Shown here piece by piece: positions 1 to 26,195 of a DNA stretch of 64,000 nucleotides (the first letter of the stretch is position 1; the number at the start of each line of letters is the position of its first letter). This stretch comes from a virus. The translations under genes and the position numbers were made by a program. Location: the IMG/VR virus record IMGVR_UViG_3300028840_006907, positions 288,001 to 352,000 of that record; one strand, given 5' to 3'. The notes beneath the pieces are model-generated. The model searched no databases. It saw only the letters and a list, made by a program, of their open reading frames with translations, and had not been told where the DNA came from.

Positions 1-1
1 T

Positions 2-706
2 ATGAATTCGGTCGGAAAAAGAATTTGGATTGGGGCTGATGATCCTAAAAATTTGACCTTAAGAGTAGTAGACGAAAATTTAGACTATGCTTTTGAGATA
101 GGTATGTCTGATATGAAAGATACAGCACATTTATTAAATGCTCAAGAAATCGAAGTTTTCCGAAATAGCAAAGACCACTGGAGATTGGTGAAGGATGTCA
201 AGATCACTGAGCATCAGAAATATCTAATTAGTCATTCTTATTTCAATGGTATGGCGGATTATTTGAGTAGAATTTACAGTCAAGAGTCGTACTTTAGTGA
301 TTTACGGTTGAATGGTGAGATCAAGATATTAAAAGAAGGCGAATTACCTTTATACGATATTAATCCAGAAAAAGAAACCTATTGTTTTGGTGAGGATGGT
401 GAAGAGTTAATAAAGGTTGGATTTAAAAACAGAGTATATGTCCCTCTTTTTGAGATAGCCCAATGTCCTTTAAAAAAGTATAACTCTGTATGGGATGTAA
501 AGGTAGACGATTTTATTACCAATAATGATTTATTGGAATATGAGAACGATTTTTATGAAAGAATCGTAAAGGAGATAGGGACAAAAGTTAAGATAATTAT
601 CCCTATAAGAACTCCTATAACTGTTTTACCAGTGACTAACTGGGTTAAAGGTGAATTTGGTTTTTCATCTTTTATTATTCTTGGGATCGGAGTATTTAAA
701 CAGTGA
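2..706 (+). CDS. hypothetical protein (5' partial at window edge)
   Basis: Long ORF running from the window start. Protein-like composition. No recognisable motif. Confidence 0.5.
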   Translation: MNSVGKRIWIGADDPKNLTLRVVDENLDYAFEIGMSDMKDTAHLLNAQEIEVFRNSKDHWRLVKDVKITEHQKYLISHSYFNGMADYLSRIYSQESYFSDLRLNGEIKILKEGELPLYDINPEKETYCFGEDGEELIKVGFKNRVYVPLFEIAQCPLKKYNSVWDVKVDDFITNNDLLEYENDFYERIVKEIGTKVKIIIPIRTPITVLPVTNWVKGEFGFSSFIILGIGVFKQ

Positions 707-1434
707 TTGATATTTTTATGACCACATGGTTTCGAGAAGAGTTCACACGTAAGTCTATTGAATTGATTCATGAAAGGACTAAACCTGGCACTTTCCAACT
801 TCATATTTTTGATAATAACAGTGGCCCGAAGATGCGCGAGTATTTAATAGGGCTTTTAAAAAATAAGAAAATAGCATCATTACATCTTGATTCTCGGAAT
901 ACCGGATGTCTTTATAATAAAGGTATTTTTCATATGATGGTGGAGGATTTTTGTAAATATTATATATGTACAGATAATGATGTCTATCCGCCTAAACTCT
1001 CTCCTGATTGGCTATCCCAGATGATTAAAATTATGGATGCTCATCCTGAACTAGCCTTTCTTGTCCCTCAGATACCCCCTCAGTGGCTTCAGGAACCTGA
1101 TCTTGCTAATTTAAAGGATGATATCGTTTATTGTAAAGCTGTTGGAAACACTTTTAAATTAGTTCGTAGAAAAGCGTTTCCTATATCAGAATTCCGTCCT
1201 GTACTAGGAGCATATGGTGATGATGCTCAGGTATGTGAACAGGTAAAATTACGAAATTATAAAGTAGCGTTTTGTCGGAATATTTTTTGTTATCATGCAG
1301 GACAATGTGAAAATTGGGGTTATAAAAAAGAAGAGATAGATTTGGATCCTCGTAAAGATGGTTACGGTAAACCGTTTAGCTATAAATTAATGAATGAAGA
1401 AACCTATGAACCTTTTCCGGAGAACAAAATATGA
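703..1434 (+). CDS. putative glycosyltransferase (GT2-like)
   Basis: ATGA overlap with the upstream ORF. 'HIFDNNSG' and 'CTDNDVYPP' (DxD-like) resemble GT2 nucleotide-sugar binding motifs. Confidence 0.4.
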   Translation: MIDIFMTTWFREEFTRKSIELIHERTKPGTFQLHIFDNNSGPKMREYLIGLLKNKKIASLHLDSRNTGCLYNKGIFHMMVEDFCKYYICTDNDVYPPKLSPDWLSQMIKIMDAHPELAFLVPQIPPQWLQEPDLANLKDDIVYCKAVGNTFKLVRRKAFPISEFRPVLGAYGDDAQVCEQVKLRNYKVAFCRNIFCYHAGQCENWGYKKEEIDLDPRKDGYGKPFSYKLMNEETYEPFPENKI

Positions 1435-1778
1435 AAAAGGCCACAGTAATAAGTCTGAGTGTAATAGTAGCTATTCTGGCAATAATTATTATAGTTACAA
1501 TAACTCATAACAGTGGAATAAATCTTACCAATCTTCATGTATCTGAAGATAAAAAAATTGAAGTAAATGAATGGGAACCTATAAAAACAGCCGGTGAAGA
1601 TGAACTAGTAAAAGTAGTTTGGGATCAGAAATATGGAGCTACGAAGACTGAGAATTGTAAAGTTGTATTTGAGAATAAGAAAAAGAAATTGTATAAATTA
1701 ATTGCCCCTGGTCTGGAAGTAGTAATAGAGCGTTCAAATATAAATGATATCTCATTTGAGATTATTAAAAAACAATAG
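1431..1778 (+). CDS. hypothetical membrane-anchored protein
   Basis: ATGA overlap with the previous gene. N-terminal hydrophobic stretch 'VISLSVIVAILAIIIIVTI'. Confidence 0.45.
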   Translation: MKKATVISLSVIVAILAIIIIVTITHNSGINLTNLHVSEDKKIEVNEWEPIKTAGEDELVKVVWDQKYGATKTENCKVVFENKKKKLYKLIAPGLEVVIERSNINDISFEIIKKQ

Positions 1779-1844
1779 TGGTTCGAATAGATAGACCTAT
1801 ATATGGCACTATTCATTTAACTTTGATGTGTAAAGGAGATTGAA

Positions 1845-2657
1845 ATGAGTGAGTATATTCCTCAAATTTGTATTAGTGCTAGTGATCCTGTTAATTCGGT
1901 AAAAAGTCTACAGGGAAGTATTATAGGTATTCTATTTGAAAAAAAGGGTAAAGAAATTAAAAGTTCTATTTATGATAGACTCAAATCAATAGATAATAAA
2001 ATCAAAGAATATGAATCAGTATGTGGTAAGACTGAATCATTTGTGGAAGAGAAAGAGAAAGAACTAAAATCTTTAAAGGAATTTCATCAAACAAAAGAAG
2101 ACGAAAAAAAGGCTCTATTATTGCCTATTAAAAAGGAAATTGAAGAAAAAATAAAAAGAGCCAATGATATTACTTATGAATTTGATCTTAGTGTGTTTAA
2201 TGCAACAAAAGAGAAAGCGATTGAATTTGAAAAAGGTTTTGATGATATTAAAAATAAATTTGATGAGATAGATAATTTACTTATAAAAGATAGAGCTGTT
2301 ATTAAAGGTGCCAGAGGTATTCAGGGTTCAACAGGTCTTATGGGAGAAACGGGGATTCAGGGAGAACCTGTTCACGGTATAGGTTATGGAAGTGATGGTA
2401 ATATAGGAATAGGTACTGATAACCCTGATTCTATTCTTCATATGGGGACTGATCCAGGAGATAAAGCATATAGTAGATTAAATACACTTAATAATCTTTT
2501 AAAAAAATATATCAATAAACTGGAATCATTAAAAGAAGGTATTAATAGATTGAAAGAAGAAAAGAGACGTCTTCAATTAACCTATGATAATATTGATGAA
2601 TCCAGGGATTACAAATTAGATCTTAATATGTTGTCTGCTTTCGGTTTCGAAAAATAA
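1845..2657 (+). CDS. coiled-coil protein with short collagen-like Gly-X-Y segment
   Basis: RBS 'aaggag' upstream. Internal 'GARGIQGSTGLMGETGIQGEP' Gly-X-Y run. K/E-rich heptad-like flanks. Confidence 0.5.
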   Translation: MSEYIPQICISASDPVNSVKSLQGSIIGILFEKKGKEIKSSIYDRLKSIDNKIKEYESVCGKTESFVEEKEKELKSLKEFHQTKEDEKKALLLPIKKEIEEKIKRANDITYEFDLSVFNATKEKAIEFEKGFDDIKNKFDEIDNLLIKDRAVIKGARGIQGSTGLMGETGIQGEPVHGIGYGSDGNIGIGTDNPDSILHMGTDPGDKAYSRLNTLNNLLKKYINKLESLKEGINRLKEEKRRLQLTYDNIDESRDYKLDLNMLSAFGFEK

Positions 2658-2670
2658 CTGGAGGAATGTT

Positions 2671-3144
2671 ATGAAAATTGTAAAAGCAATGAAAAAAATT
2701 GCCCGGTTGAAAGGGGAAGTACGCGAATTAAAGAAACGCATGAGCCGTTGTTTAAATACCCTAGAAGATAATGAAGATTTTGTTGAATCCTATAAGGATT
2801 TAGAGAAAGAATTACTTCATAAAATTACGATGATTATAAATTTGAAAAGTATTATTATGAAAGCAAATATTGATAATAATATGTTTTCTGTTATTGTGAA
2901 TTTGGGTGAACTTAAGAGTTATATGGAATATTTAAAAGAACTTGAACCTAAATCGGGTTTTAATAGTTTAAATGATTATTCAGATAAAAATGCTGAATTT
3001 AAATCACAATTGACTATAAAAGAAAAGAATGATAAAATTTCTGAATGTCAAAAAGCTATTAATGATTTGACAGATCTATTGGACGATTTTAATGCTACAA
3101 CTAATGTAGAATTTACAGAAATAGATTTAAAATTATTTGAATAA
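2671..3144 (+). CDS. hypothetical coiled-coil protein
   Basis: RBS 'ggagg' 8 nt upstream of the ATG. K/E-rich. Confidence 0.45.
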   Translation: MKIVKAMKKIARLKGEVRELKKRMSRCLNTLEDNEDFVESYKDLEKELLHKITMIINLKSIIMKANIDNNMFSVIVNLGELKSYMEYLKELEPKSGFNSLNDYSDKNAEFKSQLTIKEKNDKISECQKAINDLTDLLDDFNATTNVEFTEIDLKLFE

Positions 3145-3325
3145 ATAAAAAGTGTAGTTGTCCGATGAATAGGTTATAATTTAGTTCAGTTCCGATTGAG
3201 CTTTTTTATAATTTATAAAAAATACATGGTATAAAGATATTGATATTTTCTTAATAATCGTCTTAGGTTTTACAAGTTTTTAGTTTTCAGTTGAGTCGAA
3301 TATCATTGTTCTTTTTTAGTTTTAG

Positions 3326-3652
3326 TTGACAACTACACTTCCTTTATTAGATAGGAATAATATGGGTAAACTTCATAAAGAACTTTTTAAAGGATTAAAA
3401 TGGGTCCTTATTGCTATACTTATTATAGCGTTTATGGTGGGAGCCTGGGTAGGGTTGGCATGGTCAATAGGTTGGTTTGTAAATAGATTTTTTGATTTAC
3501 AAAATTTCAGCCCTGAGAGTTACATTTCATTCGGATCTATTATGCTGGTCTTTAATCTAATATTACAAATAATAACTGTAATTATCACCGTATGGGCTCT
3601 TCTTGCCTGGGGAAAATCCCGAGGAATGAATAATTTAAAGGGGGTCAAGTGA
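3326..3652 (+). CDS. small membrane protein
   Basis: Two hydrophobic helices ('VLIAILIIAFMVGAWVGLAW', 'IMLVFNLILQIITVIITVWALLAW'). The real start may be the internal Met at about 3362. Confidence 0.4.
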   Translation: MTTTLPLLDRNNMGKLHKELFKGLKWVLIAILIIAFMVGAWVGLAWSIGWFVNRFFDLQNFSPESYISFGSIMLVFNLILQIITVIITVWALLAWGKSRGMNNLKGVK

Positions 3653-4134
3653 ATCGTACAATAGAGATTGATGCTGAATTTTTTGAGCACCTTTTAAATT
3701 GTATGGCAAATCAGAAGTATATCGGATCCCAATTACCTGAAAAAGCTGCCGAGAAACAAAAGATTATTGATGAGGCATGGCGAAAAGGTATGGATATATT
3801 AAATCCTATCGTTAAAACGAAAGATAAAGCAGAGGATGCTTTAAAAAAATTCAATAAGAAACTTCATAAAGATCTCCCCCTTATTACAAAAAAGATAAAA
3901 GATGTAATGGATGACAATAAATATCCAAAGGATTATGTCACTGAATATGCTATGAAGTGGACTTCTGTAAGACAAGATTGTGAGATGTATTGTCTTATAG
4001 CAGAATCGGTAGATAAAGAAGAATTCGAAAAGTTATGTGAAGACAGAAGTTATACCCGGAATATGAGAGATTATATCATAGAGGTTTTAAAACATGTAGG
4101 GTTAGGAGATAATCTTGAACTGGGACATGAATAG
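3649..4134 (+). CDS. hypothetical protein
   Basis: ORF with GTGA/ATGA-type overlap with the upstream gene. No motif. Confidence 0.45.
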   Translation: MNRTIEIDAEFFEHLLNCMANQKYIGSQLPEKAAEKQKIIDEAWRKGMDILNPIVKTKDKAEDALKKFNKKLHKDLPLITKKIKDVMDDNKYPKDYVTEYAMKWTSVRQDCEMYCLIAESVDKEEFEKLCEDRSYTRNMRDYIIEVLKHVGLGDNLELGHE

Positions 4135-4315
4135 GTTTGAAAGATGGTTTTTAAAACGGCTTTGTAGAAAGATAGTGACACAGGGTGATCATAAGAGGCG
4201 TATTATTGAACATTATAAAATATTAATGGAAGCTGCAAAAGAAGAATTTACAGAAGAAAATAAGTATGGTCTTGATAGTTTCATGCAAGAATGTTTTGAA
4301 AAAGCACTTAAATAG
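4115..4315 (+). CDS. small hypothetical protein
   Basis: 66-aa ORF overlapping the previous stop. Low confidence. Confidence 0.3.
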   Translation: MNWDMNRFERWFLKRLCRKIVTQGDHKRRIIEHYKILMEAAKEEFTEENKYGLDSFMQECFEKALK

Positions 4316-4335
4316 TAAAGGAAGATAATTGAAAT

Positions 4336-7320
4336 ATGGCAGAGCAATTAAAAGTTGGATGGGTCGGATATGGGGGTAATAGTTGGATGGCTGAGGATCT
4401 TCGGCCAGTTATAGAAAAGCTAGGAATGACTTTATTCACGATTCATGAACATGATAACGCAGATATTAAATGGGAAAAGGATAACTGGTTCAATCATTTA
4501 AAAAAAGCTGATATAGTTATAGCTCCAGCTAATTATAAAAAACAACCTGCAAAGAGTGCAAATCGATTAATACAATCAATGTCAATGGGTAAACCTGTCA
4601 TATGTTCTCCTTTACCTGCATATTTAGATGTGGCTAAAAAACATCCTGGTTCATTTCTTCTAGCTGATGTCCCGGAAGAATGGGAGGAATGTTTAAAATT
4701 GCTTAGAGATAATCCTTCTTTTCGTAAACAGATGAGTGAGAAGGCTCTAGAAGCTGTTGAAGATTTTTCGATAAATGTCATAGGAAATAAGTGGCTAGAA
4801 TTATTAGAGAAAGATGTACCAATAAAAAAAGATACTGAATCGAATAAAGTTCTTATTACAGATATAATCATACCTACATATAAAAATCTTCGTGGCTTGA
4901 AGTTATGTATTGAGAGTATTCTGGAGTGTACGTTAGTGCCGTACAATATTATAATTGTAAATAATGGAACTGATGAGGAATTGCATAACTATTGTTCTCA
5001 ATTGGTAAATGTAACTTACATAAAAAAAGACAGACTTAATTTTGCCCAAGCCATGAATGTCGGGATTAAAGCAGGTGATTCTGATTTAGTCGTTCTATTA
5101 AATGATGATGTTATTGTCAGTAAAGGATGGCTTATGAATTTGAAATATGCCTGTACTGAAGATGTGGGTGCAGTAGGACCTTTAAGTAATTGTGATAAAT
5201 CCTGGCTCCATAATCATGATATCAATATTGGTGGAGTAGAATTACTGCCTGGTTCAAATACTTTTGAACAAATTGAGCCTATTATTTCTCAGATATATAA
5301 TTATGAATCTCCTTTTTTAGAAGAACCTGAACGAAAATGGGTTGCATTTTATGCTACTTTAATTCCTCGGTCAGTAATAGAAGAAGTAGGTTTTTTAGAT
5401 GAGTCCTTTACAAATTCGGGAGAGGATGTTGATTATTGTAACAGGATTATGAAGTTAGGGTATAAAATAAAACAGACCTATAAAAGTTTTGTATTTCATT
5501 TCGGAGCTGTAAGTAGGAAATTACTGGAGCAGGAAGATAAGGGCACTTATCAGAAAGCTGATGAGGAGACTCAAGAATATTTAAAGATCAAGTATTCAAA
5601 ACCAACAGTAATAATCTATTCCGGTGCCAGTTGGGAGAGATGGAGTTATAAGTCTCTTGAACAGGGGGGTATTGGTGGTAGTGAAGTTTGGCAGATAAAT
5701 GTTTGTCGTGAGTTAAATAAATTGGGTTATAGAGTAATCAGTTTTAATGATTCCCCGGAAAAGGAAATGTGGGAAGATGGGATTCAATATCTTCATTATG
5801 GAGAATTTTCGAAATGGTGTGATGGTAACTATGCCGATTACGCAATTATAAGTAGAACAACCGATCCTTTACATCATCCTTTAAGAGCTGGAAAAATATT
5901 TATAATGGTTCACGATGTCTGGTTACTTTCTGCTAGAGATCAATTATTCCTTGATAAAGTAGATAAATTTTGTGTACTTAGTAAATGGCATTGGGATTTT
6001 TTTAAAGGTCACCATGGAATCCAAGATGAATCAAAATTGGCGTTGACTTCTAATGGGATAGATTTTAATCGTTATGATAACAAAAATATTGAAAGACATC
6101 CTTATAAAATGTTTTACAGTTCTTCCCCGGATCGAGGTCTTGATACACTCCTTTACCTATTTCCCTTTATTAAGGAAAAAATTCCAGAACTTGAACTCCA
6201 TATTTATTATGGATTTAACAATTGGGAAAAGGCAGTGAAGATGAGAAAAAACCAGATTGAGATAGATAGAATGAATAAAATAAAAAAGGATATGGAACAA
6301 CCTGGGGTATTTTATCATGGCCGAGTTGGTCAGAAGGAGCTAGCTGAAGCGCAATTAGAATGTTCTCTTTGGGCCTATCCGACGGATTTTGAAGAAGTTT
6401 TTTGCATCACTGCTATTGAGGCTCAAAGAGCCAGAATCCCTGTATTAGCAACGAATTACGCTGCTTTACAGACAACAGTAGGTGACTCAGGAATTCTAAT
6501 AGGAAATGGCATGAAAGGAGAATCTTATACACGAGATTATCGATTAAAATTTGTAGATGAGTGTATAAAAGTTTTAACAGATAAAGAATATAGAGAACAC
6601 TGGATTGAGAAAGGTTTAAAAAATACGGAGAAATATTCTTGGGAACAAGTGGCTAAAAATTGGAAGAAATTGTTTGAAAAAAGTGATCAAAAAGTAGAAG
6701 CAAAAATTATAGATGAAAAAGAATACAAGAAAGATCGAGTGCTAGTTCATGAAATGAAAATAAGTTCTAATTATATGCCAGATCCTCACAGCCATTTAAA
6801 TAATGAGAGAGATCGTTTTCATTATTATAAAACACTTAATGCTTTCGTTTCATCAAATTCATGTAGTGCATTGGATGTGGGTTGTTTTGATGGGTGGATT
6901 GATTTTCTTCTTATAGAACAAGGATTTAAATTAACTGGAGTTGAGTTGATGGAACCTCTTGTTCAAGCTGCTCGAAAATATGCAGAAGTTAAACAACTTG
7001 ATTATACAATTTATCAGGGTTTTTTTGAAGAGATTGAGATAGACCAGAAATTTGATTTAGTGATATGTTTGGAGACTTTGGAACATATTGATTTAAAACT
7101 TGTCCCTGAGTATATACAAAAAATGAAAAGTCTTGCTACAAAGGGTCTTTTCATATCACTCCCGGATCAGAAACATGAAGATAATACCCAGCATTTATGG
7201 ACACCTACTGAAAATTTAATAAGAAAAATGTGGGGTAATAAAAAGAATTTTTCATTGGAATACCATACTTATCAGGATTCAAATTTACCCGCTAATTGGT
7301 TAATTTATTTCGAAGTGTAG
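4336..7320 (+). CDS. multidomain glycosyltransferase/methyltransferase fusion (GT-B half, GT2, GT4, class I SAM MTase)
   Basis: 994 aa. GT2 block 'IIIPTYKN...IIIVNNGTDEE...LNDDVIVSKGW'. GT4 EX7E-type block 'EVFCITAIEAQRARIPVLATNYAALQTTVGDSGILI'. C-terminal MTase motif I 'ALDVGCFDGW' and post-I 'DLVICLETLEHI'. RBS 'aaggaag'. Confidence 0.85.
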   Translation: MAEQLKVGWVGYGGNSWMAEDLRPVIEKLGMTLFTIHEHDNADIKWEKDNWFNHLKKADIVIAPANYKKQPAKSANRLIQSMSMGKPVICSPLPAYLDVAKKHPGSFLLADVPEEWEECLKLLRDNPSFRKQMSEKALEAVEDFSINVIGNKWLELLEKDVPIKKDTESNKVLITDIIIPTYKNLRGLKLCIESILECTLVPYNIIIVNNGTDEELHNYCSQLVNVTYIKKDRLNFAQAMNVGIKAGDSDLVVLLNDDVIVSKGWLMNLKYACTEDVGAVGPLSNCDKSWLHNHDINIGGVELLPGSNTFEQIEPIISQIYNYESPFLEEPERKWVAFYATLIPRSVIEEVGFLDESFTNSGEDVDYCNRIMKLGYKIKQTYKSFVFHFGAVSRKLLEQEDKGTYQKADEETQEYLKIKYSKPTVIIYSGASWERWSYKSLEQGGIGGSEVWQINVCRELNKLGYRVISFNDSPEKEMWEDGIQYLHYGEFSKWCDGNYADYAIISRTTDPLHHPLRAGKIFIMVHDVWLLSARDQLFLDKVDKFCVLSKWHWDFFKGHHGIQDESKLALTSNGIDFNRYDNKNIERHPYKMFYSSSPDRGLDTLLYLFPFIKEKIPELELHIYYGFNNWEKAVKMRKNQIEIDRMNKIKKDMEQPGVFYHGRVGQKELAEAQLECSLWAYPTDFEEVFCITAIEAQRARIPVLATNYAALQTTVGDSGILIGNGMKGESYTRDYRLKFVDECIKVLTDKEYREHWIEKGLKNTEKYSWEQVAKNWKKLFEKSDQKVEAKIIDEKEYKKDRVLVHEMKISSNYMPDPHSHLNNERDRFHYYKTLNAFVSSNSCSALDVGCFDGWIDFLLIEQGFKLTGVELMEPLVQAARKYAEVKQLDYTIYQGFFEEIEIDQKFDLVICLETLEHIDLKLVPEYIQKMKSLATKGLFISLPDQKHEDNTQHLWTPTENLIRKMWGNKKNFSLEYHTYQDSNLPANWLIYFEV

Positions 7321-8930: not shown

Positions 8931-10280
8931 ATGGAACAAAAATTATCGGTTATAGGATTAGGTAAATTGGGCTGTACAATGATGGTATGTTTTGCTCATA
9001 AAGGATGGGAAGTTATAGGGGTTGATGTTAATGAATTAACTATTGAAACTATTCTACGAGGTCGGAGTCCTATCGATGAACCTTTTGTAGAAGAGATGAT
9101 AAGTGATAATGCAGAAAGGATAAGAGTAACATCTGATTGTGAAAATGCTGTTTTAAATAGTGATGTAAGTTTTGTAATAGTTCCTACTCCCAGTAAGGAA
9201 GATGGGTCTTTTTCGACAGAATATGTTGAAAATGCTACAATGGAAGTTGCGAAAGCTTTGACAAAAAAGAACTCTTATCATTTAATTGTAATTACTTCTA
9301 CTGTTCTTCCTGGAGACAGTCTTCGAATTTCTTATGAGATTGCTCGGGAGTCAGGGAAAGAACTAGGAAAGGATTTCGGTGTTGTTTATAATCCTGATTT
9401 CATAGCACTCGGTAAAATTGTCAGCGATTTTTTAAACCCTGACATGATCCTTATCGGTGAGTACGATGAGAAGTCAGGAGATATCATTCAAGACATACAC
9501 CTGAAACTTATAGATAGTAATCCTACTTTTCATAGGATGAATTTCTTTAATGCTGAACTGGCGAAAATTTCTCTTAATGCCTACTGTACTTTGAAAATTA
9601 CTTTTGCGAACATAATCGCGGAGATATGTGAGAATTTACCTGGCGGTGATTCTAATAAAGTCTTAAGTGCTGTAGGAGCTGATAGTCGGGTGGGTCAAAA
9701 ATATCTCAAAGGTGGTTTGGGGTACAGCGGACCATGTTTTCCGCGTGATAATCGAGCCCTCGCCCATTCTGCAAGGTTCTTTGGCACTACAAATTATTTC
9801 TGTGAGATGACAGATGCAATAAACAACTATCATAAAACAGAAAGAATATGCAATCTTTTATTGGGGTACATGGAAGAAAAGAACACAAAAGAATTAGCTA
9901 TACTTGGTTTATCCTATAAGGAAGATACTCCTGTGATTGAAGAATCTGTATCTATTTCAGTTATAAAAACTCTTTGGGAAAAAGGAATGAATATAAAAGT
10001 TTTTGATCCGGTTGCTATGGAAAATGCAAAAAGAGAATTAGAAGGTTATGATAATATTTATTATGCCTCTTCTGAATATGATTGTATAGATGGTACTTCC
10101 GTTTGTTTTATAGCTACTCCTTGGAAACAGTTCTTTAGTTTGAATCATCAAGAAGTAATAAAAAGAATGAAAAAGAGTTCTATTATTCTTGACTCATGGG
10201 GAGTATTACCTTATGACAGAGCAACTAATAGAGGCAAAAAAGTAGAGGTAAAACAACTAGGGAAAAATTATCAATCGTAA
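8931..10280 (+). CDS. nucleotide-sugar 6-dehydrogenase (UDP-glucose/GDP-mannose dehydrogenase family)
   Basis: N-terminal Rossmann 'VIGLGKLGCTMMVCFAHKGWEVIGVDVN'. Catalytic region 'GGLGYSGPCFPRD'. Family-typical length of 449 aa. Confidence 0.85.
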   Translation: MEQKLSVIGLGKLGCTMMVCFAHKGWEVIGVDVNELTIETILRGRSPIDEPFVEEMISDNAERIRVTSDCENAVLNSDVSFVIVPTPSKEDGSFSTEYVENATMEVAKALTKKNSYHLIVITSTVLPGDSLRISYEIARESGKELGKDFGVVYNPDFIALGKIVSDFLNPDMILIGEYDEKSGDIIQDIHLKLIDSNPTFHRMNFFNAELAKISLNAYCTLKITFANIIAEICENLPGGDSNKVLSAVGADSRVGQKYLKGGLGYSGPCFPRDNRALAHSARFFGTTNYFCEMTDAINNYHKTERICNLLLGYMEEKNTKELAILGLSYKEDTPVIEESVSISVIKTLWEKGMNIKVFDPVAMENAKRELEGYDNIYYASSEYDCIDGTSVCFIATPWKQFFSLNHQEVIKRMKKSSIILDSWGVLPYDRATNRGKKVEVKQLGKNYQS

Positions 10281-10342: not shown

Positions 10343-11146
10343 ATGCCGAGATTAAGCTTTATTGTCACTGGACGAAATGACAATTATGACCAAAATTTTA
10401 ATGAACGTTTAACCATCGCTTTAAGAAGAAATATAAAATCCCTTCCAGACGCTGAATTCATTTTTGTAGAATGGAATCCTTATTTAGACCGCCCATTAAC
10501 ATGTTCAAAATTAAAAAGGACTTTTGGAGATCGAGTTAAATATTATGTAGTTCATCCTAAATATCATAAATATTATTGTAACATTGATGGTTTTCTTGAA
10601 TACCCTCCAAAAAATATCGGAATACGTAAGGCTACAGGTGAATTTATTATTTGTACAAATTCAGATGTAATTTTTTGTCCAGATCTAGTTCATTGTATGA
10701 ATATGCATTTGGAAAAAAATGTCCTTTATCGTGCTACTCGAATTGATATCCGACCAGATTATCTTAATGTAAGTTTCCCCCTTCATCCAAAATTTAAGCT
10801 TGAAACAAATCAAGGTCCTATGAATGCAGCGGGTGATTTTCTTTTAATGCATCGGGATCTATGGTATAAAACTACTGGTTATTGCGAGGAATACCCGTGG
10901 CAGAGATTACATAAAGATGCTCAGATAGTTTATTTGCTTTCTAATAAAAGAGGGTATGAAGTTCGAAACATAGGATCTATGACACATTGGAGACATCCTA
11001 GCTCCTGGTCTAATGGAAAATGTCGAGCTAGAGTAGGTGATGTGAATTGGGATTTTCAAAAATGTAATTACAAAATGAATAAAAAAACATGGGGTCTCAC
11101 GTTTACAGATGAGGTCGAAAAAGACGGCATAATTTGGCTAATTTAA
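10343..11146 (+). CDS. hypothetical protein, possible glycosyltransferase-like
   Basis: Starts 'LSFIVTGRNDNY' like the GT-A first beta-strand. 'NSDVIFCPD' is DxD-like. Weak. Confidence 0.35.
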   Translation: MPRLSFIVTGRNDNYDQNFNERLTIALRRNIKSLPDAEFIFVEWNPYLDRPLTCSKLKRTFGDRVKYYVVHPKYHKYYCNIDGFLEYPPKNIGIRKATGEFIICTNSDVIFCPDLVHCMNMHLEKNVLYRATRIDIRPDYLNVSFPLHPKFKLETNQGPMNAAGDFLLMHRDLWYKTTGYCEEYPWQRLHKDAQIVYLLSNKRGYEVRNIGSMTHWRHPSSWSNGKCRARVGDVNWDFQKCNYKMNKKTWGLTFTDEVEKDGIIWLI

Positions 11147-11176
11147 ATTTACATATAGATATTGAAAGGAGATTGT

Positions 11177-12151
11177 ATGAAACGTATATTGGTTACTGGA
11201 GCAGGCGGTTTTATTGGAGGCCATTTAGTCACTCGATTGAAAGAGGAGGGCTATTGGGTTCGTGGAGTTGATATTAAAGAGCATGAATATAAGAAGACTG
11301 ATGCAGATGAATTTTATCTTAAAGATTTGAGAATAATGCAAAATTGTCTTACTTCATGCGCTGATATTGATGAATGTTATACATTAGCTGCTGACATGGG
11401 TGGTGCAGGATTTGTTTTTACTGGTGAGAATGATGCTGATATCATGCATAATTCTGCGAAGATAAATTTAAATATGGCTGAAGCTTGCCGAATACAAGGA
11501 GTAAAGAAGATATTTTATTCCTCTTCAGCGTGCATGTATCCTGCTCATAATCAAACCGATCCGGATAATCCTTTACTTTCTGAGGATTCTGCTTATCCTG
11601 CAGCTCCCGATAGTGAATACGGGTGGGAAAAACTTTTCTCAGAACATCTTTATTTAGCTTATAACAAAAATTATGGACTGGATGTTCGTGTGGCAAGATT
11701 TCATAATATTTTTGGAGTTTTGGGAACATGGCAAGGTGGAAGAGAAAAAGCTCCTGCTGCATTGAATCGTAAAGTAGCTATGGCTAAAGATGGTGATGTA
11801 ATCGAAGTGTGGGGACCTGGTACTCAAACACGTTCTTTCCTTTATATAGAGGAATGTATTGAAGCAGTACGTCGTTTCATGGAATCAGATTTTTTAGGCC
11901 CTGTAAATATAGGTTCTGAAGAAATGATTTCAATAAACGATCTTGCGAAAATGGCCATAGATATTAGTGGTAAAAAACTTACTATCAAAAATGTGGAAGG
12001 TCCTGTAGGAGTTATGGGCCGTAATTCAGATAATAATTTATATGAAGAAAAGGTTGGATGGAGACCTTCAAAACCTTTACATTATGGTATGGAAAAGACT
12101 TATGCTTGGATAAGTGATCAAATTAAACAAATTTATCCCTTTAGAAAATAG
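11177..12151 (+). CDS. NAD-dependent sugar epimerase (GDP-mannose 3,5-epimerase-like SDR)
   Basis: RBS 'aaaggag' precedes the Met at 11177. 'ILVTGAGGFIGGHLV' and 'YSSSACMYPAHNQ...EYGWEKLFSE' resemble GME-type extended SDRs. Confidence 0.75.
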   Translation: MKRILVTGAGGFIGGHLVTRLKEEGYWVRGVDIKEHEYKKTDADEFYLKDLRIMQNCLTSCADIDECYTLAADMGGAGFVFTGENDADIMHNSAKINLNMAEACRIQGVKKIFYSSSACMYPAHNQTDPDNPLLSEDSAYPAAPDSEYGWEKLFSEHLYLAYNKNYGLDVRVARFHNIFGVLGTWQGGREKAPAALNRKVAMAKDGDVIEVWGPGTQTRSFLYIEECIEAVRRFMESDFLGPVNIGSEEMISINDLAKMAIDISGKKLTIKNVEGPVGVMGRNSDNNLYEEKVGWRPSKPLHYGMEKTYAWISDQIKQIYPFRK

Positions 12152-12154
12152 CTT

Positions 12155-12856
12155 ATGGAATTAATAACAAAAGCAGTTATAATGGCTGGTGGAGAGGGTA
12201 CTCGGTTAAGACCTTATACAGAAATGACTCCTAAAGCAATGTTAGAGGTTAACGGTATTCCTCTCTTACGTTTAATGATAGAGAGACTTCATAGTTTTGG
12301 TATAACTCATTTCTATTTAAGTGTAAATTATCTCTCGAAAGTAATCTGTGATTATTTCGGTGATGGATCTAAATTTGGGATTAATATCACTTATATAAAA
12401 GAACCTTATTCGATGGGGACCGCAGGTTCAATTAGTATGGTTGATATTGAAGAACCTTTTTTGGTTATAAATGGAGATGTTTATACCAGTCTTGATTTTA
12501 GAGATCTCTTTGTAGAATTTAGAAGATCTAAATCAGATCTATTAATATGTTGTAGGGAGCAATTATTAAAAACAGATTATGGTGTTATTGTAAAAGAAGA
12601 TGACAGGATAACTTCCTGGGTTGAAAAACCTGAGTTTACTCATTACATAAGTTGTGGTATCTATGTATTCAAACCAGAGATTGTAAAATATATACCTAAA
12701 GAACATTTTTTTAATATGAATCATTTAGCTGAAGCGGTTATTGAAAAGAATAAAAAAGCTGGATTTTATTTAATGGATGATCTAGATATCTGGATTGATA
12801 TAGGAACTATTGAAGAATATAATAAGGTCAAGGAATTGTTAACAGTAAAAAAATAA
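12155..12856 (+). CDS. sugar-phosphate nucleotidyltransferase
   Basis: 'AVIMAGGEGTRLRPYT' is the nucleotidyltransferase G-rich loop. About 230 aa. Confidence 0.8.
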   Translation: MELITKAVIMAGGEGTRLRPYTEMTPKAMLEVNGIPLLRLMIERLHSFGITHFYLSVNYLSKVICDYFGDGSKFGINITYIKEPYSMGTAGSISMVDIEEPFLVINGDVYTSLDFRDLFVEFRRSKSDLLICCREQLLKTDYGVIVKEDDRITSWVEKPEFTHYISCGIYVFKPEIVKYIPKEHFFNMNHLAEAVIEKNKKAGFYLMDDLDIWIDIGTIEEYNKVKELLTVKK

Positions 12857-12865
12857 GAGGATAAA

Positions 12866-13759
12866 GTGAGAGTTGTATTTATTGGTTGCGTCAATTTCAG
12901 TAAAGCAATGTTGGAATATGCTTTAGAAATAGAGTGCCTTGAAATAGTGGGTATCGTGACAAAATCAGAATCCAATTTTAATACAGATTTCTGTTCTTTG
13001 GCCCCTTTAGCCCAGGAACATAATATTTCTTATCTTTTATACGATCAATTAAAATCGGAAAGTGGACTCAATAGTTGGGTTGAATTAAAATTTCCTGATG
13101 TGATCTTTTGTTTTGGTTGGTCCCATTTATTAAAAGCTGAACTTATAGAAATTCCTAAAATAGGAGTCATAGGACATCATCCTACAATGCTTCCTAAGAA
13201 TAGAGGGCGACATCCAGTAATATGGGCGTTAGCTTTAGGATTGGAGTATACTGCTTCAACTTTTTTCTTTATAGATCCTGGGGTGGATTCTGGGGATATT
13301 CTAGATCAAATCCCTGTAAATATAAATTTTGATGATGATGCTAGTATTCTCTATCAGAAGATCACAGTGACTGCAGGAAAGCAATTAAAAACATTTTCTC
13401 CTCTTTTGGAGAAAGGAGAATATATAGTTGTTAAACAAGATATGAGTAAAGCTACATGGTGGAGAAAAAGGTCAAAAGCTGATGGATATATTGATTGGCG
13501 TATGAGTTGTTTTTCCATTCATAATTTAGTCCGGGCTTTGACTTGTCCTTATGTAGGGGCTCATTGTGAATTTAACAATAGGGATATAAAGATCTGGAAA
13601 GTTAGAATAATGTATAAAGGATTAGATGATATTGAACCAGGTAAAATAATCGATTTAAATAGAAATAAAAATGAAATCTATATAAAGTGCGGGGATGGAG
13701 TTATGTGTATCTATGATCATGAATTTGATCCTCTGCCTGAGATCGGAACTTATTTATGA
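12866..13759 (+). CDS. formyltransferase (sugar N-formyltransferase / Fmt-like)
   Basis: GTG start preceded by 'aagagg'. 'GHHPTMLPKNRGRHPVIWA' matches the formyltransferase catalytic loop (HxSLLPxxRG). Confidence 0.65.
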   Translation: MRVVFIGCVNFSKAMLEYALEIECLEIVGIVTKSESNFNTDFCSLAPLAQEHNISYLLYDQLKSESGLNSWVELKFPDVIFCFGWSHLLKAELIEIPKIGVIGHHPTMLPKNRGRHPVIWALALGLEYTASTFFFIDPGVDSGDILDQIPVNINFDDDASILYQKITVTAGKQLKTFSPLLEKGEYIVVKQDMSKATWWRKRSKADGYIDWRMSCFSIHNLVRALTCPYVGAHCEFNNRDIKIWKVRIMYKGLDDIEPGKIIDLNRNKNEIYIKCGDGVMCIYDHEFDPLPEIGTYL

Positions 13760-14415
13760 AAATTATTGCCATTGCACCTCATCCTGATGATGAGACTCTG
13801 GGATGTGGTGGTACACTCTTGAAGCATCGGGATGCCTCAGATGATATTTATTTGGTTCTTGTTACTACAGCAGGTTCTGAATACAGTGAAGAGCATATCA
13901 ATAATAAATACAAAGAAATAGATAATGCCAACGAGATTTTTGAATTTAAGACTATCTTCGATTTGGGTTTCCCTGTTACTCATATTGGTTCTATAGATAT
14001 ATCAGAAATAATTGGTAAACTAATGGACACATTTAAATTAGTGGGTCCCGATATTATTTATGTTCCTTTCCCGTATGATATTCATACTGATCATCAAGTT
14101 GTTTTTGATGCGGTTTCTTCGTGTACAAAATGGTTCAGAATACCTACTTTGAAAAGAATACTAGCCTATGAAACTATATCTGAAACAGATTTTATTATTA
14201 GACCCGGTCCTTCTTTTATCCCTAATGTTTTTGTCAATATTGAAGATCACATTGATAAAAAGATAGAGGCTATGAAATGCTATGCTAGTGAAATTGCTAT
14301 GCCTCCTTTTCCTCGTAGTGAGGAGAATATCAGAGCCCTGGCAACATTAAGAGGTTCAACATCTGGTTTCAAAGCTGCGGAAGCTTTCATGTTGTTAAAG
14401 GAGATAGATGAATGA
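13756..14415 (+). CDS. PIG-L/LmbE family N-acetylglucosaminyl deacetylase
   Basis: 'IIAIAPHPDDETLGCGGTL' is the PIG-L signature. Confidence 0.8.
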   Translation: MKIIAIAPHPDDETLGCGGTLLKHRDASDDIYLVLVTTAGSEYSEEHINNKYKEIDNANEIFEFKTIFDLGFPVTHIGSIDISEIIGKLMDTFKLVGPDIIYVPFPYDIHTDHQVVFDAVSSCTKWFRIPTLKRILAYETISETDFIIRPGPSFIPNVFVNIEDHIDKKIEAMKCYASEIAMPPFPRSEENIRALATLRGSTSGFKAAEAFMLLKEIDE

Positions 14416-15380
14416 GTAAAAAAGTTTTAGTTACTGGTGCAGGAGGATTTATAGGATCTCATTTAGTAAAACGGCTCATGGAATATGGGTATGATGTTAC
14501 AGCACTGGTAAAATATAATGCAAATGGTTCTTGGGGCTGGTTAGACACATTTCATCGTTCTGTAATCAAAGATATTAGAGTAGAGTTGGGTGATGTTCGG
14601 GATCCGGAACAAATGATGAGATATAAAAACATGGATATTATTTTCCATTTAGCTGCTTTGATAGGTATCCCTTATTCCTATGTAGCTCCTCGTTCATATG
14701 TCGATACCAATATAAACGGTACTTTAAACATGCTTCAGGTTTGTCGGGAAAATGGAGCTACTTATATTCATACATCAACTTCTGAGGTATATGGTACAGC
14801 CCTTTATGAACCTATTGATGAAAAACATCCTATCCAAACACAGAGTCCATATTCAGCTACAAAAAGTGCTGGAGATAGTTTAGCAAAGAGTTATTATCTT
14901 TCCTTCGATTTGCCCGTTATTATAGTAAGACCATTCAATACTTTTGGAACACGTCAATCTTTAAGAGCTGTTATTCCCACTATTATCAGTCAGGCATGTA
15001 AAGATGATGTTATAAAACTTGGAGATCCAAGTACCATGAGAGATTTCATTTTTGTGGATGATACTGTAGAAGGCTTTATAAAGGCCGCTGAGAGGGGAAA
15101 ATCTGGAGAGACTTATAATATAGGTTATGGCAAAAAAAGGTCAATAAGAAGTATTGTGGATGACGTAGGCAATATATTAGGTAAAGTTTTAAAAATTGAA
15201 TCGGAACCAGAGAGAATGCGACCTCCGAAGAGTGAGGTAAGAGTTCTTGTTTGTAATAATGAAAAAGCAAAAAAAGAATTGGGATGGGATATTAAATGGC
15301 CTTTTAAAAAAGGGTTGGAATATTTGATCTACGATTGGCAACGAGAAAACAAAGAAAGTAAAGATTTTTATCATGTCTAG
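14412..15380 (+). CDS. NAD-dependent nucleotide-sugar epimerase/4,6-dehydratase (extended SDR)
   Basis: 'VLVTGAGGFIGSHLV'. Catalytic 'YSATKSAGD' (YxxxK). About 320 aa. Confidence 0.85.
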   Translation: MSKKVLVTGAGGFIGSHLVKRLMEYGYDVTALVKYNANGSWGWLDTFHRSVIKDIRVELGDVRDPEQMMRYKNMDIIFHLAALIGIPYSYVAPRSYVDTNINGTLNMLQVCRENGATYIHTSTSEVYGTALYEPIDEKHPIQTQSPYSATKSAGDSLAKSYYLSFDLPVIIVRPFNTFGTRQSLRAVIPTIISQACKDDVIKLGDPSTMRDFIFVDDTVEGFIKAAERGKSGETYNIGYGKKRSIRSIVDDVGNILGKVLKIESEPERMRPPKSEVRVLVCNNEKAKKELGWDIKWPFKKGLEYLIYDWQRENKESKDFYHV

Positions 15381-16449
15381 TATATTTTTACACATACCTC
15401 ATATAGGGGAAGAGGAAAAGGCAGAAGTAAATAAGGCTCTTAATACTGGAGAATTGACCTGTGGAAATTATTTAAATCAATTTGAAAAAGAATTAAGTGA
15501 AAGGATAAATTCTCCTGTTGTTTTATGCTCTTCTGGAACAGCAGCTTTGCAATTAGGTCTACATGCTATGGGTATAGGTCCAGGAGATGAAGTAATTGTT
15601 CCTAATATGTCTTTTGTTTCGACTATAAATTCTGTTTTATATATGGGTGCTACCCCAGTTTTGTGCGATGTAGGTGATCCTGAATACGAGCTTTCCATTG
15701 ATCCTGAAGAAATAATCGATCTCATAACTCCTCGAACTAAAGCTATAATGGTATCTCATCTTTGTGGGGGATACGGTGACATTGAAAAGATATTAGATAT
15801 AGCTAGTGCGTATAAAGTTGATGTCATTGAAGATGCTGCTCAGGCAGTAGGTTGTACTATGAATGGCAAAGCTTTGGGAACATTTGGAAAGTTTGGTGTC
15901 TATTCATTTAATGGGAATAAAATTATCACCACAGGTGGTGGAGGCACTCTTTTAACTTCAGATCGTGGAATGAGTCAGAGAGTACGAAATCTTCTTAATC
16001 AAGCGAAAGACATTTTAAATCCTTTTTCTCATATAGAGATGGGGTATAATTATAGAATCAGTAATATCCATGCTGCGATAGGTTGTGCTCAATTAAAAAA
16101 ATTAGACTCTTTTATTGATAAGAAAAAATTTATTCATGAGACCTATAAAAAGAAGTTAGACATAATAACTTATAAGGAAAAATCCAATTATTGGTTGAAT
16201 GTTTATAAAGTAAAAAAATTTAATCCTTATGAAGCTGTTTGGAATCTGGATTACAAAAGCATAGAGACTCGTCCTATTTATACCCCTTTTCATATGATGG
16301 ATTTTCTTAAAAAATATGGTGAGGATGAATACCCGGTTTCAGAGAAATTATATAACAGTCTTTTTTGTTTGCCATCTTATTTATCTCTTGATGAAGAGAT
16401 AATCGATAAAGTAGTGGATGAAATAAATAATTTGGAGAATAGTGAATGA
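15373..16449 (+). CDS. DegT/DnrJ/EryC1/StrS-family PLP-dependent sugar aminotransferase
   Basis: 'CSSGTAALQLGL'. 'FSFNGNKIITTGGGG' carries the PLP lysine. Typical length. Confidence 0.85.
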   Translation: MSSIFLHIPHIGEEEKAEVNKALNTGELTCGNYLNQFEKELSERINSPVVLCSSGTAALQLGLHAMGIGPGDEVIVPNMSFVSTINSVLYMGATPVLCDVGDPEYELSIDPEEIIDLITPRTKAIMVSHLCGGYGDIEKILDIASAYKVDVIEDAAQAVGCTMNGKALGTFGKFGVYSFNGNKIITTGGGGTLLTSDRGMSQRVRNLLNQAKDILNPFSHIEMGYNYRISNIHAAIGCAQLKKLDSFIDKKKFIHETYKKKLDIITYKEKSNYWLNVYKVKKFNPYEAVWNLDYKSIETRPIYTPFHMMDFLKKYGEDEYPVSEKLYNSLFCLPSYLSLDEEIIDKVVDEINNLENSE

Positions 16450-17141
16450 AAAAACATATCCTTTTGATGTTTAATATGGGAAATAGTGGTGGGAAGTATT
16501 TCGAAGATATTTGTAATACTCACGAAGATGTTCAGATATGGCAAGAAGCAAATCACCTTTTAAAAGTAGATCATCTTGAGACACCAGTTCAGTTCGACAG
16601 GGTATATGCTTTTTTCATGAAACAGTATGAAGAAAATAAGAAAAAAACCATCGGATTAATAAAAGCTTTTGATCATCGGTTAATAGGATTGGCTGAAAGA
16701 ACTGGTGGGTCTATCATGCAGATGTTCAGACATCCTGTAGGTGTGGTGGGTTTTAAGACAGGCCATAAAATGGCTGAGTGTGAACAGAGAGGTTTGTTTG
16801 ACAAACTAGACACACCTGAAAAGATTTTTGAAGCTCATGTGGATTTTTATGCCTCAATATATAATTCCTATACGAAGAATGCTCATAAGTGGCCTGTTGT
16901 TAAATTAGAGGATTTAAAAAAGTCTTTACGGGAAAGAACTCCGTATTTTGAAGATGTAATGAAAAAAGCGCTGAAAGTTGACTGGCAACCGAAACATACA
17001 AAAAAAGTTATTAATATGGGAGGGCTTGAAGAGAATAGAGATCATTTTGATATTTGGAAATCATGGGAAGATTGGAAGAAAGATATTTTTCTGAAGTATT
17101 TCCAGGAAATAATGAAATTGTATATGTATGAATGGGAATGA
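16446..17141 (+). CDS. sulfotransferase-like protein (paralog of 20367..21158)
   Basis: 'NMGNSGGKYF' is a 5'-PSB-like Gly-rich loop. 'MFRHPVGVVGF' is 3'-PB-like. The C-terminus 'IWKSWEDWKKDIFLKYFQEIM' is shared with the paralog. Confidence 0.4.
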   Translation: MKKHILLMFNMGNSGGKYFEDICNTHEDVQIWQEANHLLKVDHLETPVQFDRVYAFFMKQYEENKKKTIGLIKAFDHRLIGLAERTGGSIMQMFRHPVGVVGFKTGHKMAECEQRGLFDKLDTPEKIFEAHVDFYASIYNSYTKNAHKWPVVKLEDLKKSLRERTPYFEDVMKKALKVDWQPKHTKKVINMGGLEENRDHFDIWKSWEDWKKDIFLKYFQEIMKLYMYEWE

Positions 17142-17155
17142 TAGGAGGACGAAGT

Positions 17156-19052: not shown

Positions 19053-19055
19053 AAT

Positions 19056-21158: not shown

Positions 21159-21161
21159 TAA

Positions 21162-22443: not shown

Positions 22444-22444
22444 T

Positions 22445-24570: not shown

Positions 24571-24661
24571 TAGGGGTAAAGAAGTTTCTCTACCCCTACA
24601 TGCACATTTTAACCACAATCCCATCTTATGGCTAAAAATATAATAAAAGGATGATACAAGA

Positions 24662-25480: not shown

Positions 25481-25567
25481 GGGTGGCCAGCCCCGCGTAG
25501 GCGGGGAAAAGGGATACGATAAGAAAAAATCTGCTCTGTGGAACAGCCCCACGAAAGTGGGGAATAA
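25481..25567 (-). repeat. two CRISPR-repeat-like GC hairpin units (orphan mini-array or repeat-derived bidirectional terminator)
   Basis: Minus-strand reads 'TTATTCCCCACTTTCGTGGGGCTGTTCCA' and 'TTCCCCGCCTACGCGGGGCTGGCCACC', 57 nt apart. Both match the 51.4 kb array repeat ATATTCCCCGCGTATGCGGGGCTG. Lies between convergent genes. Confidence 0.5.
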
Positions 25568-25631
25568 TGCCACCCATTTTAAAAGATAGTATTGGGTGGT
25601 CTTTTAAATCAACTCTAAATTTTCCAGGAGT

Positions 25632-26096: not shown

Positions 26097-26195
26097 TCCT
26101 CTCTATATATTATACCAGTCAAATAGCCATTTTATACCAAAAAAAATTGTAATAATCTTTTAATTGCGATGTAACGTAATGAAAAGGGGTAAATT

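Follow-up and report, generated by a model that had tools for sequence, protein, structure and literature searches.

An open reading frame (ORF) on the plus strand (4336..7320) of a 64,000-nucleotide stretch of viral DNA (positions 288,001 to 352,000 of IMG/VR record IMGVR_UViG_3300028840_006907; hereafter the window) encodes a 994-residue protein that begins with half of a glycosyltransferase (GT) of the GT-B fold. The missing half is at the C-terminus of a second large protein, P0348, whose gene lies upstream on the same contig. Throughout the window's clade the two halves are on separate, co-occurring genes, and profile comparisons show that the GT-B has been cut between its two Rossmann halves, each of which is kept on a large multi-domain protein. 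We judge the chances somewhat better than even that the ORF encodes one subunit of a soluble, two-polypeptide glycan-building enzyme in which the halves dock, sugars are added in sequence and the product is O-methylated, with a virion protein as the favoured acceptor. The main interest of the system, which is moderate, lies in its split-domain, two-subunit architecture and the candidate that it offers for self-encoded virion glycosylation in huge phages.

The ORF starts at an ATG and runs through 994 codons to a stop. The first-pass annotation of this stretch had read four domains in its product (half a GT-B, a GT2, a GT4 and a class I S-adenosylmethionine (SAM) methyltransferase), and all four are recognizable, with boundaries drawn from Pfam and an AlphaFold2 model (Table 1). 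In Pfam, the GT2 domain matches Glycos_transf_2 (PF00535) at residues 177-270 (54.5 bits against a cut-off of 23.3) and PF13641 (47.5 bits against 27), with a Glyco_tranf_2_3 match spanning residues 177-389; the GT4 domain, at residues ~447-761, matches Glycos_transf_1 (PF00534) over residues 598-761 (62.1 bits against 26.4) and PF13692 (54.2 bits against 27); and PF13649, PF13847, PF08241, PF13489 and PF08242 all exceed their cut-offs at residues 841-960, where the methyltransferase domain also matches methyltransferases in the PDB at E 1e-7. The half-GT-B region, which is closest to GT4 and Glyco_trans_1_2, gives a sub-threshold match to the latter (residues 53-142, E 0.0067). In Foldseek comparisons the GT2 fold matches K4CP and ppGalNAc-T2, and the chondroitin polymerase K4CP is also its closest solved sequence relative (phmmer against PDB sequences, E 2e-7), while the GT4 fold matches PimA, MshA, the methylmannose-polysaccharide mannosyltransferase, GlgM and BshA (E ~1e-13, TM score (target) 0.6-0.7).

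The AlphaFold2 model, built on a 99-sequence alignment, has a predicted local distance difference test (pLDDT) score mostly above 90 across residues 1-160, 175-421 and 423-782, with short disordered linkers between them. In the alignment, N256 and D258 of the GT2 domain are invariant and D257 nearly so, as are E363 and D364 with D366 nearly so; H388 is invariant, and so are E687 and E695 of the GT4 EX7E motif in all 99 sequences. The half GT-B is conserved as well as these catalytic domains: it is 45-69% identical to aligned close relatives, and its residues K73, S74, Q80, Y96 and W153 are invariant in the same 99 sequences.

The relatives of this half domain reveal where its counterpart has gone. 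A profile search with the N-terminal domain returned 75 cluster representatives at E<=1e-30, and many lower-ranked matches are stand-alone proteins of ~300-420 residues in which the domain forms the C-terminal half (residues ~150-315). A hidden Markov model (HMM) built from the N-terminal halves of the stand-alone GT-B relatives matches the ~140 residues directly before the half domain in homologues of 1290-1780 residues (E 1e-14 to 1e-35), whose architecture runs GT2a-TPR-(methyltransferase)-[N-half][C-half]-GT2b-GT4, TPR being tetratricopeptide repeats. These long members occur in distant phage (L015-L035) and as chromosomal genes of Chitinophaga, Ignavibacteria and Blastocatellia, and the two GT-B halves are contiguous in L015-L035 and L041-L046. 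Among ORFs within the window the N-half HMM has no match; it does match the extreme C-termini of L002_653, L003_667 and P0348 (E ~1e-25 to 1e-27). In L002 and L003 these partners are separate proteins of ~650-690 residues encoded adjoining or near the core gene (in L002 the gap is 18 nt), and the partners are homologous over their full length to the region that the fused bacterial proteins carry ahead of the core (E 1e-103 to 1e-125). A PDB sequence search with the stand-alone GT-B P0145 gave nothing informative.

P0348, a protein of 693 residues, was found by a search with the L002 partner. It has the same contig count and the same longest contig (469,617 bp) as the ORF, and its gene, on the same contig and strand, ends 54 nt before the first base of the window. 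The pairing extends well beyond this genome. There are more than 1100 partner homologues, the N-half lies at the exact C-terminal end in 98 of 119 of them, and core and partner homologues are found on contigs up to 590 kb. By hand count, at least 33 core/partner pairs are on contigs equal in length to the base pair, among them 12 of the 13 split-core contigs of at least 130 kb. The array of same-strand genes that joins the partner gene to the ORF shows synteny with L003, L064 and L066. An alternative genetic code or stop read-through was considered as the cause of the split and rejected: the L002 junction reads TAA TAA att TAA, then AAAGGA, a ribosome-binding site, and then ATG, which marks a true gene boundary, and in the window genome eight other ORFs stand between the two genes.

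The wider family puts the fusion in a different light from the one in which it was first described. Searches with the ORF return more than 400 proteins at E<=1e-5, from huge-phage contigs of 130-590 kb (IMG/VR viral contigs up to 467 kb, metagenome contigs up to 590 kb) and from chromosomes of Bacteroidota, Ignavibacteriota and Acidobacteriota. The top ~110 homologues are 45-68% identical and nearly all ~770 residues long; they consist of half GT-B, GT2 and GT4 and end where the linker begins in the window's protein. The first-pass annotation held that these domains would normally be three or four separate genes. That does not fit the family, where the trio is almost always a single polypeptide and thus a conserved unit, not an unusual fusion, and the methyltransferase is its sole variable add-on. 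Bacterial and distant-phage homologues carry further fused domains (GT2-TPR-(methyltransferase)-..., 1290-1780 residues); compared with these, the window's ORF is a fission product that has gained one methyltransferase. Bacterial homologues L047, L048 and L053 have GT2 and GT4 only, without the half domain.

The added methyltransferase belongs to a subfamily with a clear hallmark (LD(V/I)G..DGW, E.LEH, ISLP.Q, HLWTP, NW.I.Y; in the ORF, LDVGCFDGW ... ETLEHI ... ISLPDQ ... HLWTP ... NW-I-Y) and is found at three positions. It is C-terminal in the window ORF and in L028, lies between half GT-B and GT2 in P0112 (31% identical to the window's methyltransferase) and is N-terminal and more divergent in P0028 and L009; motif I, LDVGCFDGW, is kept in L028 and P0112. 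That one type of methyltransferase has joined one GT core several times independently is, by a Rosetta-stone argument, good evidence that both act on the same product. The 203-residue methyltransferase downstream in L064 and L066 was examined as a source of the fused domain and rejected as a paralogue (24-27% identical, E 1e-8), and no homologue of the fused methyltransferase was found within 10 kb in L002 or L003.

Other rearrangements were seen in the family. In L010 (9020-12421) a GT17 domain is fused ahead of the core, and the partner-type methyltransferase is C-terminal in L015 (5463-9881) and N-terminal in P0120. Inteins and HNH genes are frequent on contigs carrying ORF homologues. Inteins interrupt the GT4 domain at about residue 690, within the EX7E motif, in L025, L034, L035 and L036, and the partner-type N-terminal GT2a in L031; they also occur in the UDP-glucose dehydrogenase and epimerase of close relatives, and further cases include P0012, P0019, P0033 and others, L064 (8464-10959) and L066 (16054-18180). 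Against 50,697 phage records, megablast with the ORF gave no match and tblastn gave single-domain GT4 or GT2 matches only (23-33% identity). An IMG/VR pattern scan with the single protein returned nothing, and an alignment-based scan found the viral homologues. In a limited search of the literature, no paper was found that describes the family, the split or the association with giant proteins. The minus-strand ORF antisense to the GT gene (4533-4946) is most likely not a gene; it seems conserved in tblastn because it lies opposite a conserved one.

Taken together, these features suggest how the enzyme may work. P0348 would bring GT2a, the TPR repeats, methyltransferase A and the N-terminal Rossmann half, and the ORF product would bring the C-terminal Rossmann half, GT2b, the complete GT4 and methyltransferase B. 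The halves would dock in trans as in Alg14/Alg13, with one of two outcomes: a fourth active site rebuilt, or the subunits merely tethered. The resulting cytoplasmic complex, with three or four transferase sites and two methyltransferases, would add different sugars one after another, non-processively, and then O-methylate the product. Its donors would come from the adjacent sugar island and include UDP-glucuronate-derived sugars, a nonulosonic acid of the legionaminic/pseudaminic type and others. Several different transferase domains argue for sequential single additions and not for processive polymerization. Of the processive glycan assembly and methylation machine proposed in the first-pass annotation, the coupling of glycosyl transfer to methylation stands, given the same methyltransferase subfamily at three positions, and the processivity is not supported: the ORF has no QxxRW motif and no predicted transmembrane segment (its sole hydrophobic window is a Rossmann beta-strand at residue 190), and a Kyte-Doolittle scan found no multi-pass membrane ORF in the ~31-kb sugar island.

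The acceptor is the least certain step, and we favour a phage structural protein on circumstantial grounds. First, in distant relatives (L016-L036) the multi-GT gene lies inside the structural block, where homologues of the window's 43559-43954 and 44006-44647 flank it and the head-tail connector gene is only a few genes away. Second, both the partner and the fused proteins contain TPR repeats, which favours a protein acceptor. Third, the GT genes of L002 follow those for Laminin_G_3 proteins of 2251 and 1091 residues. Fourth, bacterial homologues are paired with a giant ORF. Fifth, no export machinery is encoded in the island, where we found no initiating polyprenyl-phosphate transferase, flippase, Wzy/polymerase or ABC permease. 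Finally, virion glycosylation has precedents in chloroviruses, mimiviruses and mycobacteriophages, the last as cited in PMC12619734. In the window just 52 nt separate 43559-43954 (an FmdB-like zinc-ribbon protein) from 44006-44647, with the GT gene at a distance of ~37 kb, so the gene has moved between the structural module and the sugar island, in one direction or the other.

The giant ORF deserves description in its own right. In bacteria of several phyla, the fused homologue always faces a convergent giant ORF of >1600 to 2658 residues, itself homologous from genome to genome (L043, at 10311-18287 (-); L041; L044-L049; Chitinophaga, Ignavibacteria, Kapaibacterium and other bacterial genomes). 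Its product is Thr-rich, with a weak LysM match only and no sequence relative in the PDB, and the chromosomal neighbourhood is otherwise ordinary. The two genes look like a conserved module, with the giant protein as a candidate glycosylation substrate.

Several observations weigh against a two-subunit, virion-directed enzyme. Docking of the halves in trans is a deduction from their co-occurrence on the same contigs, and in the window genome the P0348 gene is 4.4 kb upstream, separated from the ORF by eight small same-strand ORFs and not adjacent as in L002. The half GT-B has K73/S74/Q80 at the position of the GT4 EX7E motif, as do its stand-alone and fused relatives, so the split GT-B may use a different chemistry or be non-catalytic. 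The pLDDT falls below 50 at residues 785-994, where the alignment barely covers the methyltransferase domain. As regards the acceptor, TPR repeats may serve simply as a scaffold, no counterpart of the giant protein was found in the phage loci examined or in the window, and in the window's own clade the gene stands beside sugar genes and a thymidylate kinase gene (7546-8247), outside the structural block. The transmembrane scan was a crude hydropathy scan, and a Mom-like protein is encoded elsewhere in the window.

With these points in the balance, we still prefer the two-subunit enzyme acting on a virion protein. The broader proposal, that huge phages coat their own virions with complex methylated (perhaps sulfated) nonulosonic-acid glycans produced solely with phage enzymes, and that the split-GT-B, two-subunit builder is central to this, is one that we put forward only tentatively. 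If true, it would be the bacterial-virus equivalent of the glycosylation of mimivirus fibrils and chlorovirus capsids, and the Bacteroidota homologues would glycosylate giant proteins.

A first alternative, which we consider unlikely but worth serious attention, is that the enzyme acts by itself or together with P0348 at the cytoplasmic face of the infected cell, making or altering a lipid-linked glycan of the bacterial surface (O-antigen, capsule, S-layer or flagellin glycan); this might serve, for instance, to exclude superinfecting phages or to alter receptors. The protein does resemble the ABC-transporter-dependent multi-domain polymerases of O-antigen and capsule that carry a methyl terminator, and its closest solved GT2 relative is a capsule polymerase, that of K4 chondroitin. 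Its GT4 resembles PimA, PglA, PglH, WaaG and the methylmannose-polysaccharide ManT, which act on lipids or polysaccharides; bacterial surface glycans typically contain sugars such as those of the island (UDP-glucuronate derivatives, a Leg/Pse-type nonulosonic acid, formylated and methylated sugars); and homologues occur in ordinary Chitinophaga chromosomal contexts. However, such a pathway would have to rely wholly on host export, the island having neither the initiating and export functions listed above nor a multi-pass ORF. The gene also lies within the virion module throughout one clade of relatives, and the bacterial copies are paired with a giant protein and not with polysaccharide export genes.

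Somewhat less probable again is an autonomous enzyme, in which the half GT-B is vestigial or a folding or oligomerization module and GT2, GT4 and methyltransferase act independently of the 693-residue protein to make a methylated disaccharide unit or a polymethylated polysaccharide. All three are complete domains, the core and partner genes are 4.4 kb apart in this genome, and homologues with GT2 and GT4 alone exist (L047, L048 and L053); the GT4, moreover, is similar to the mannosyltransferase of mycobacterial methylmannose polysaccharide, an enzyme that acts alongside a separate methyltransferase. A remnant is nevertheless hard to reconcile with a half domain that retains 45-69% identity in close relatives and five residues invariant in 99 sequences, or with the finding that nearly all genomes of the clade keep the missing half, at the very C-terminus of a protein that strictly co-occurs with the core.

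We think it quite improbable that one or more of the transferase domains instead glycosylate modified bases of phage DNA, by T4-type glucosylation or arabinosylation, as a protection against restriction. Viral GTs do hypermodify DNA with diverse glycans (Pyle et al. 2024, as cited in PMC12619734), the thymidylate kinase gene is directly downstream of the ORF, the window encodes a Mom-family/DUF7487 protein (53409-55916), and nucleoside hydrolase and deoxyribosyltransferase genes are found near the L003 homologue. Yet the match to T4 AGT is far below those to generic GT4 enzymes, no hydroxymethylase was seen in the window, and four transferase domains, two methyltransferases, TPR repeats and a nonulosonic-acid pathway far exceed the known needs of DNA glycosylation. 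Chromosomal bacterial homologues paired with giant proteins also fit poorly.

The ORF itself is genuine. Four collections (JGI, ENA, Logan and NCBI) contain the identical 994-residue protein on at least seven contigs, the longest of 469,617 bp, and the window sequence is identical to JGI metagenome contig Ga0180437_10000019 (388,651 bp). Composition is even across the four domains (GC 0.32-0.36, third-position GC3 0.23-0.26), and the GT4/methyltransferase junction has no in-frame stop, the other two frames being full of stops. The strongest answer to the doubt about an assembly chimera that had been raised for this gene is an independent sequence, L028, a different virus with the same junction (37% identical in GT4 and 47% in methyltransferase). 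Most relatives do end at ~770-790 residues, and the junction is A-rich and of low complexity, a type of sequence prone to indel errors, but given this evidence and the related methyltransferases fused elsewhere in the same protein in P0112 and P0028, the chance that an assembly or frameshift error has joined a ~780-residue GT gene to a separate methyltransferase gene is negligible.

Table 1. Features of the window and of the partner gene upstream of it. Coordinates are those of the window unless marked as residues (aa) of P0348; P0348 domain boundaries are approximate, read from sequence and precomputed Pfam matches, except that of the N-half.
Feature	Coordinates	Strand	Residues	Remarks
P0348 gene	-2134..-53	+	693 aa	partner of the ORF
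P0348 GT2a			aa 1-170	
P0348 TPR			aa ~180-340	
P0348 methyltransferase, second type (type A)			aa ~360-545	followed by Lys/Pro/Glu-rich linker
P0348 GT-B N-half			aa 567-692	N-half HMM, E 3e-25
Gene array	1..4335	+		same-strand array joining ORF to partner gene; weak GT2-like ORF 703-1434
Half GT-B	4336..4815	+	aa 1-160	C-terminal (donor-binding) Rossmann half of compact GT-B; N-terminal half not on same polypeptide
Antisense ORF	4533-4946	-	137 aa	inside GT gene
GT2	4858..5598	+	aa 175-421	GT2-type GT-A domain; NDD 256-258, DVD 364-366, H388
GT4	5602..6681	+	aa 423-782	predicted complete GT4-type (retaining) GT-B; EX7E E687-E695
Linker	6682..6732	+	aa 783-799	Lys/Glu-rich, GT4 to methyltransferase; low pLDDT, GC 0.235
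Methyltransferase (type B)	6733..7320	+	aa ~800-994 + stop	class I SAM methyltransferase
Thymidylate kinase	7546-8247			directly downstream of ORF
Glycan island, whole	8931-39759	both		~31 kb
UDP-glucose 6-dehydrogenase	8931..10280	+		Pfam, NCBIfam
Conserved protein, function not assigned	10343..11146	+	267 aa	
Short-chain (SDR) epimerase/dehydratase	11162..12151	+		Pfam, NCBIfam
Rest of glycan island	12155..39759	both		sugar-1-phosphate nucleotidyltransferase, ArnA-like formyltransferase, PIG-L deacetylase; LegB-like dehydratase, LegC-like aminotransferase, NeuB-like synthase, PseG-like hydrolase and CMP-transferase (nonulosonic-acid pathway); sulfotransferase, hexapeptide acyltransferase, GT10-like and GT2 ORFs; at least 8 further methyltransferase ORFs
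Sulfotransferase-like ORF	21730-22443			Pfam Sulfotransfer_1
Radical-SAM enzyme	28478-29545	-		flanked by short ORFs 27859-28485 and 29514-30038
Second fusion	34711..36765	-	684 aa	methyltransferase aa ~20-135, GT2 aa 188-348, ~250-aa C-terminal region
Virion (structural) module	41453..53315	+		
Sulfotransferase-like ORF	49032-49610			PHROG 'galactose-3-O-sulfotransferase'; within structural block
DUF7487/Mom-family protein	53409-55916	-	835 aa	helix-turn-helix-like motifs
Tail-fibre-like ORF	59979-63665		1228 aa	

The sugar island offers a plausible supply of donors. Its opening trio (dehydrogenase, conserved protein and epimerase) follows the core GT gene in all close relatives (L003, L009, L064, L065 and L066) and is likely, from its annotated functions, to be the source of a UDP-hexuronate-derived donor. 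Further along, the two short ORFs that flank the radical-SAM gene resemble two halves of a thiamine-pyrophosphate (TPP)-dependent enzyme of the E1/transketolase type, and the three together may form a pathway to a branched-chain or two-carbon-extended sugar. The two sulfotransferase-like ORFs hint at sulfated glycans. The second fusion that had been proposed at 34711..36765 does contain a methyltransferase and a GT2. The GT2 part has bacterial relatives in L051 and L052, and the C-terminal region (residues ~430-684), which has no Pfam match, contains 'NVVIFSKDR' and 'FLVDDIVF', the latter with a GT-A-like 'VDD', and looks like another GT-A-type domain.

The genome around the island has the features of a huge tailed phage. 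At 32% G+C, the window is densely filled with ORFs, which often overlap, and contains no tRNA. Pfam and PHROGs gave almost nothing for the large ORFs at 39997-63665, and phage identity comes from tblastn. The ORF at 52410-53315 matches the 'head-tail connector' gp319 of the 309-kb Tunturiibacter phage Tunturi_5 (E 5e-29), with further matches in a 485-kb uncultured phage and in Bacillus phage G (gp165); a PDB sequence search with it gave nothing informative. For the ORF at 41453-43231 the match is a Tunturi_5 tail protein, and for 46054-46431 a PHROG 'virion structural protein'; the end of the 1228-residue ORF resembles tail fibres of T4-like cyanophages and Flavobacterium phages. These tail fibre, connector, tail and virion matches mark the source as a huge tailed phage and not a giant eukaryotic virus. 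The DUF7487/Mom-family gene adjoins the connector gene in L020-L036, parts of its product recur in Lak megaphages, at up to 13 places in one genome, and it may be a DNA-modification enzyme. The phage gene set is also found on long contigs deposited in cellular metagenome-assembled genomes: P0375 (a 424,144-bp contig, also L027), L040 and L049, labelled 'Candidatus Nanoarchaeia archaeon', 'KSB1 bacterium' and 'Erythrobacter sanguineus'. These are probably mis-binned phage or foreign contigs.

To our knowledge, the viruses shown to encode their own glycosylation include giant eukaryotic viruses and a few mycobacteriophages but no huge phages, for which the gene pair and its ~31-kb island represent a concrete, widely conserved candidate glycosylation machine. 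Set beside other viral multi-GT proteins, a comparison to which the first-pass annotation had pointed, the fusion as such is not novel, since multi-GT and GT-methyltransferase proteins are common in BFVD among giant viruses and uncultured Caudovirales. Closest in working principle is A064R of PBCV-1, a three-domain GT/GT/methyltransferase that builds and methylates the capsid N-glycan (PMC9614988) and whose methyltransferase acts on the sugar just added, in a soluble, sequential and non-processive manner (PMC9614988; PMC7826918). Like the window's protein it is a virus-encoded polypeptide with GT domains of different folds and a terminal SAM methyltransferase; A111/114R of PBCV-1, a three-GT protein, is a comparable multi-GT polypeptide. 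No homology to A064R was detected, A064R-D1 being absent from the PDB phmmer matches (E<=0.01) and from the top 50 Foldseek PDB matches; the two proteins were not compared pairwise. A064R combines a GT-A with a novel GT, whereas the window's ORF has GT2, GT4 and half a GT-B and needs, or at least co-occurs with, a second subunit; the host is an alga in one case and a bacterium in the other. A064R works on a capsid glycan, and the parallel here is one of gene context only, the structural module of L016-L036.

Soluble or peripheral multi-GT polypeptides that lay down alternating sugars are also known from polysaccharide synthesis, including K4CP/KfoC (GT2-GT2), PmHS2, the O-antigen enzymes WbdA/WbdD and WbbB-type, and TagF-like Cps3D, which has a TPR scaffold (8qoy). 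In the O9a system the methyltransferase WbdD terminates the chain. The window's island differs from these systems in lacking export machinery and a lipid-carrier initiating enzyme, and the combination of domains is different. True homologues (35-40% identity over residues 5-788) are encoded by bacteria, for example Chitinophaga cymbidii KCTC 23738 (L043, 6480-10361; 1293 residues), with the same order of core domains and the partner domains fused in front (GT2-TPR-GT-B-GT2-GT4). They differ in being single chromosomal polypeptides with an intact GT-B and no C-terminal methyltransferase B, convergent with the giant ORF. With the giant protein beside them, the fused homologues offer, in Chitinophaga, a culturable system in which to find the acceptor.

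The split itself is most like that of Alg13/Alg14, where the active site lies between two proteins (PMC8993221), and of EpsF/EpsE: in both, the N (acceptor) and C (donor) halves of a GT-B are on separate genes and are fused in some lineages. Those enzymes belong to the GT1/GT28 (MurG-like) lineage, whereas the window's half is GT4/Glyco_trans_1_2-like and is not counted as their homologue. Its halves also sit in large multi-domain proteins without a membrane anchor, and would associate in a way predicted from sequence. The practical lesson for annotation is that a 'half' GT domain at a protein terminus should prompt a search for the other half. The split GT-B predicts how the two subunits assemble, and would be a second, independent case of the Alg13/Alg14 principle, in another lineage of the GT-B fold.

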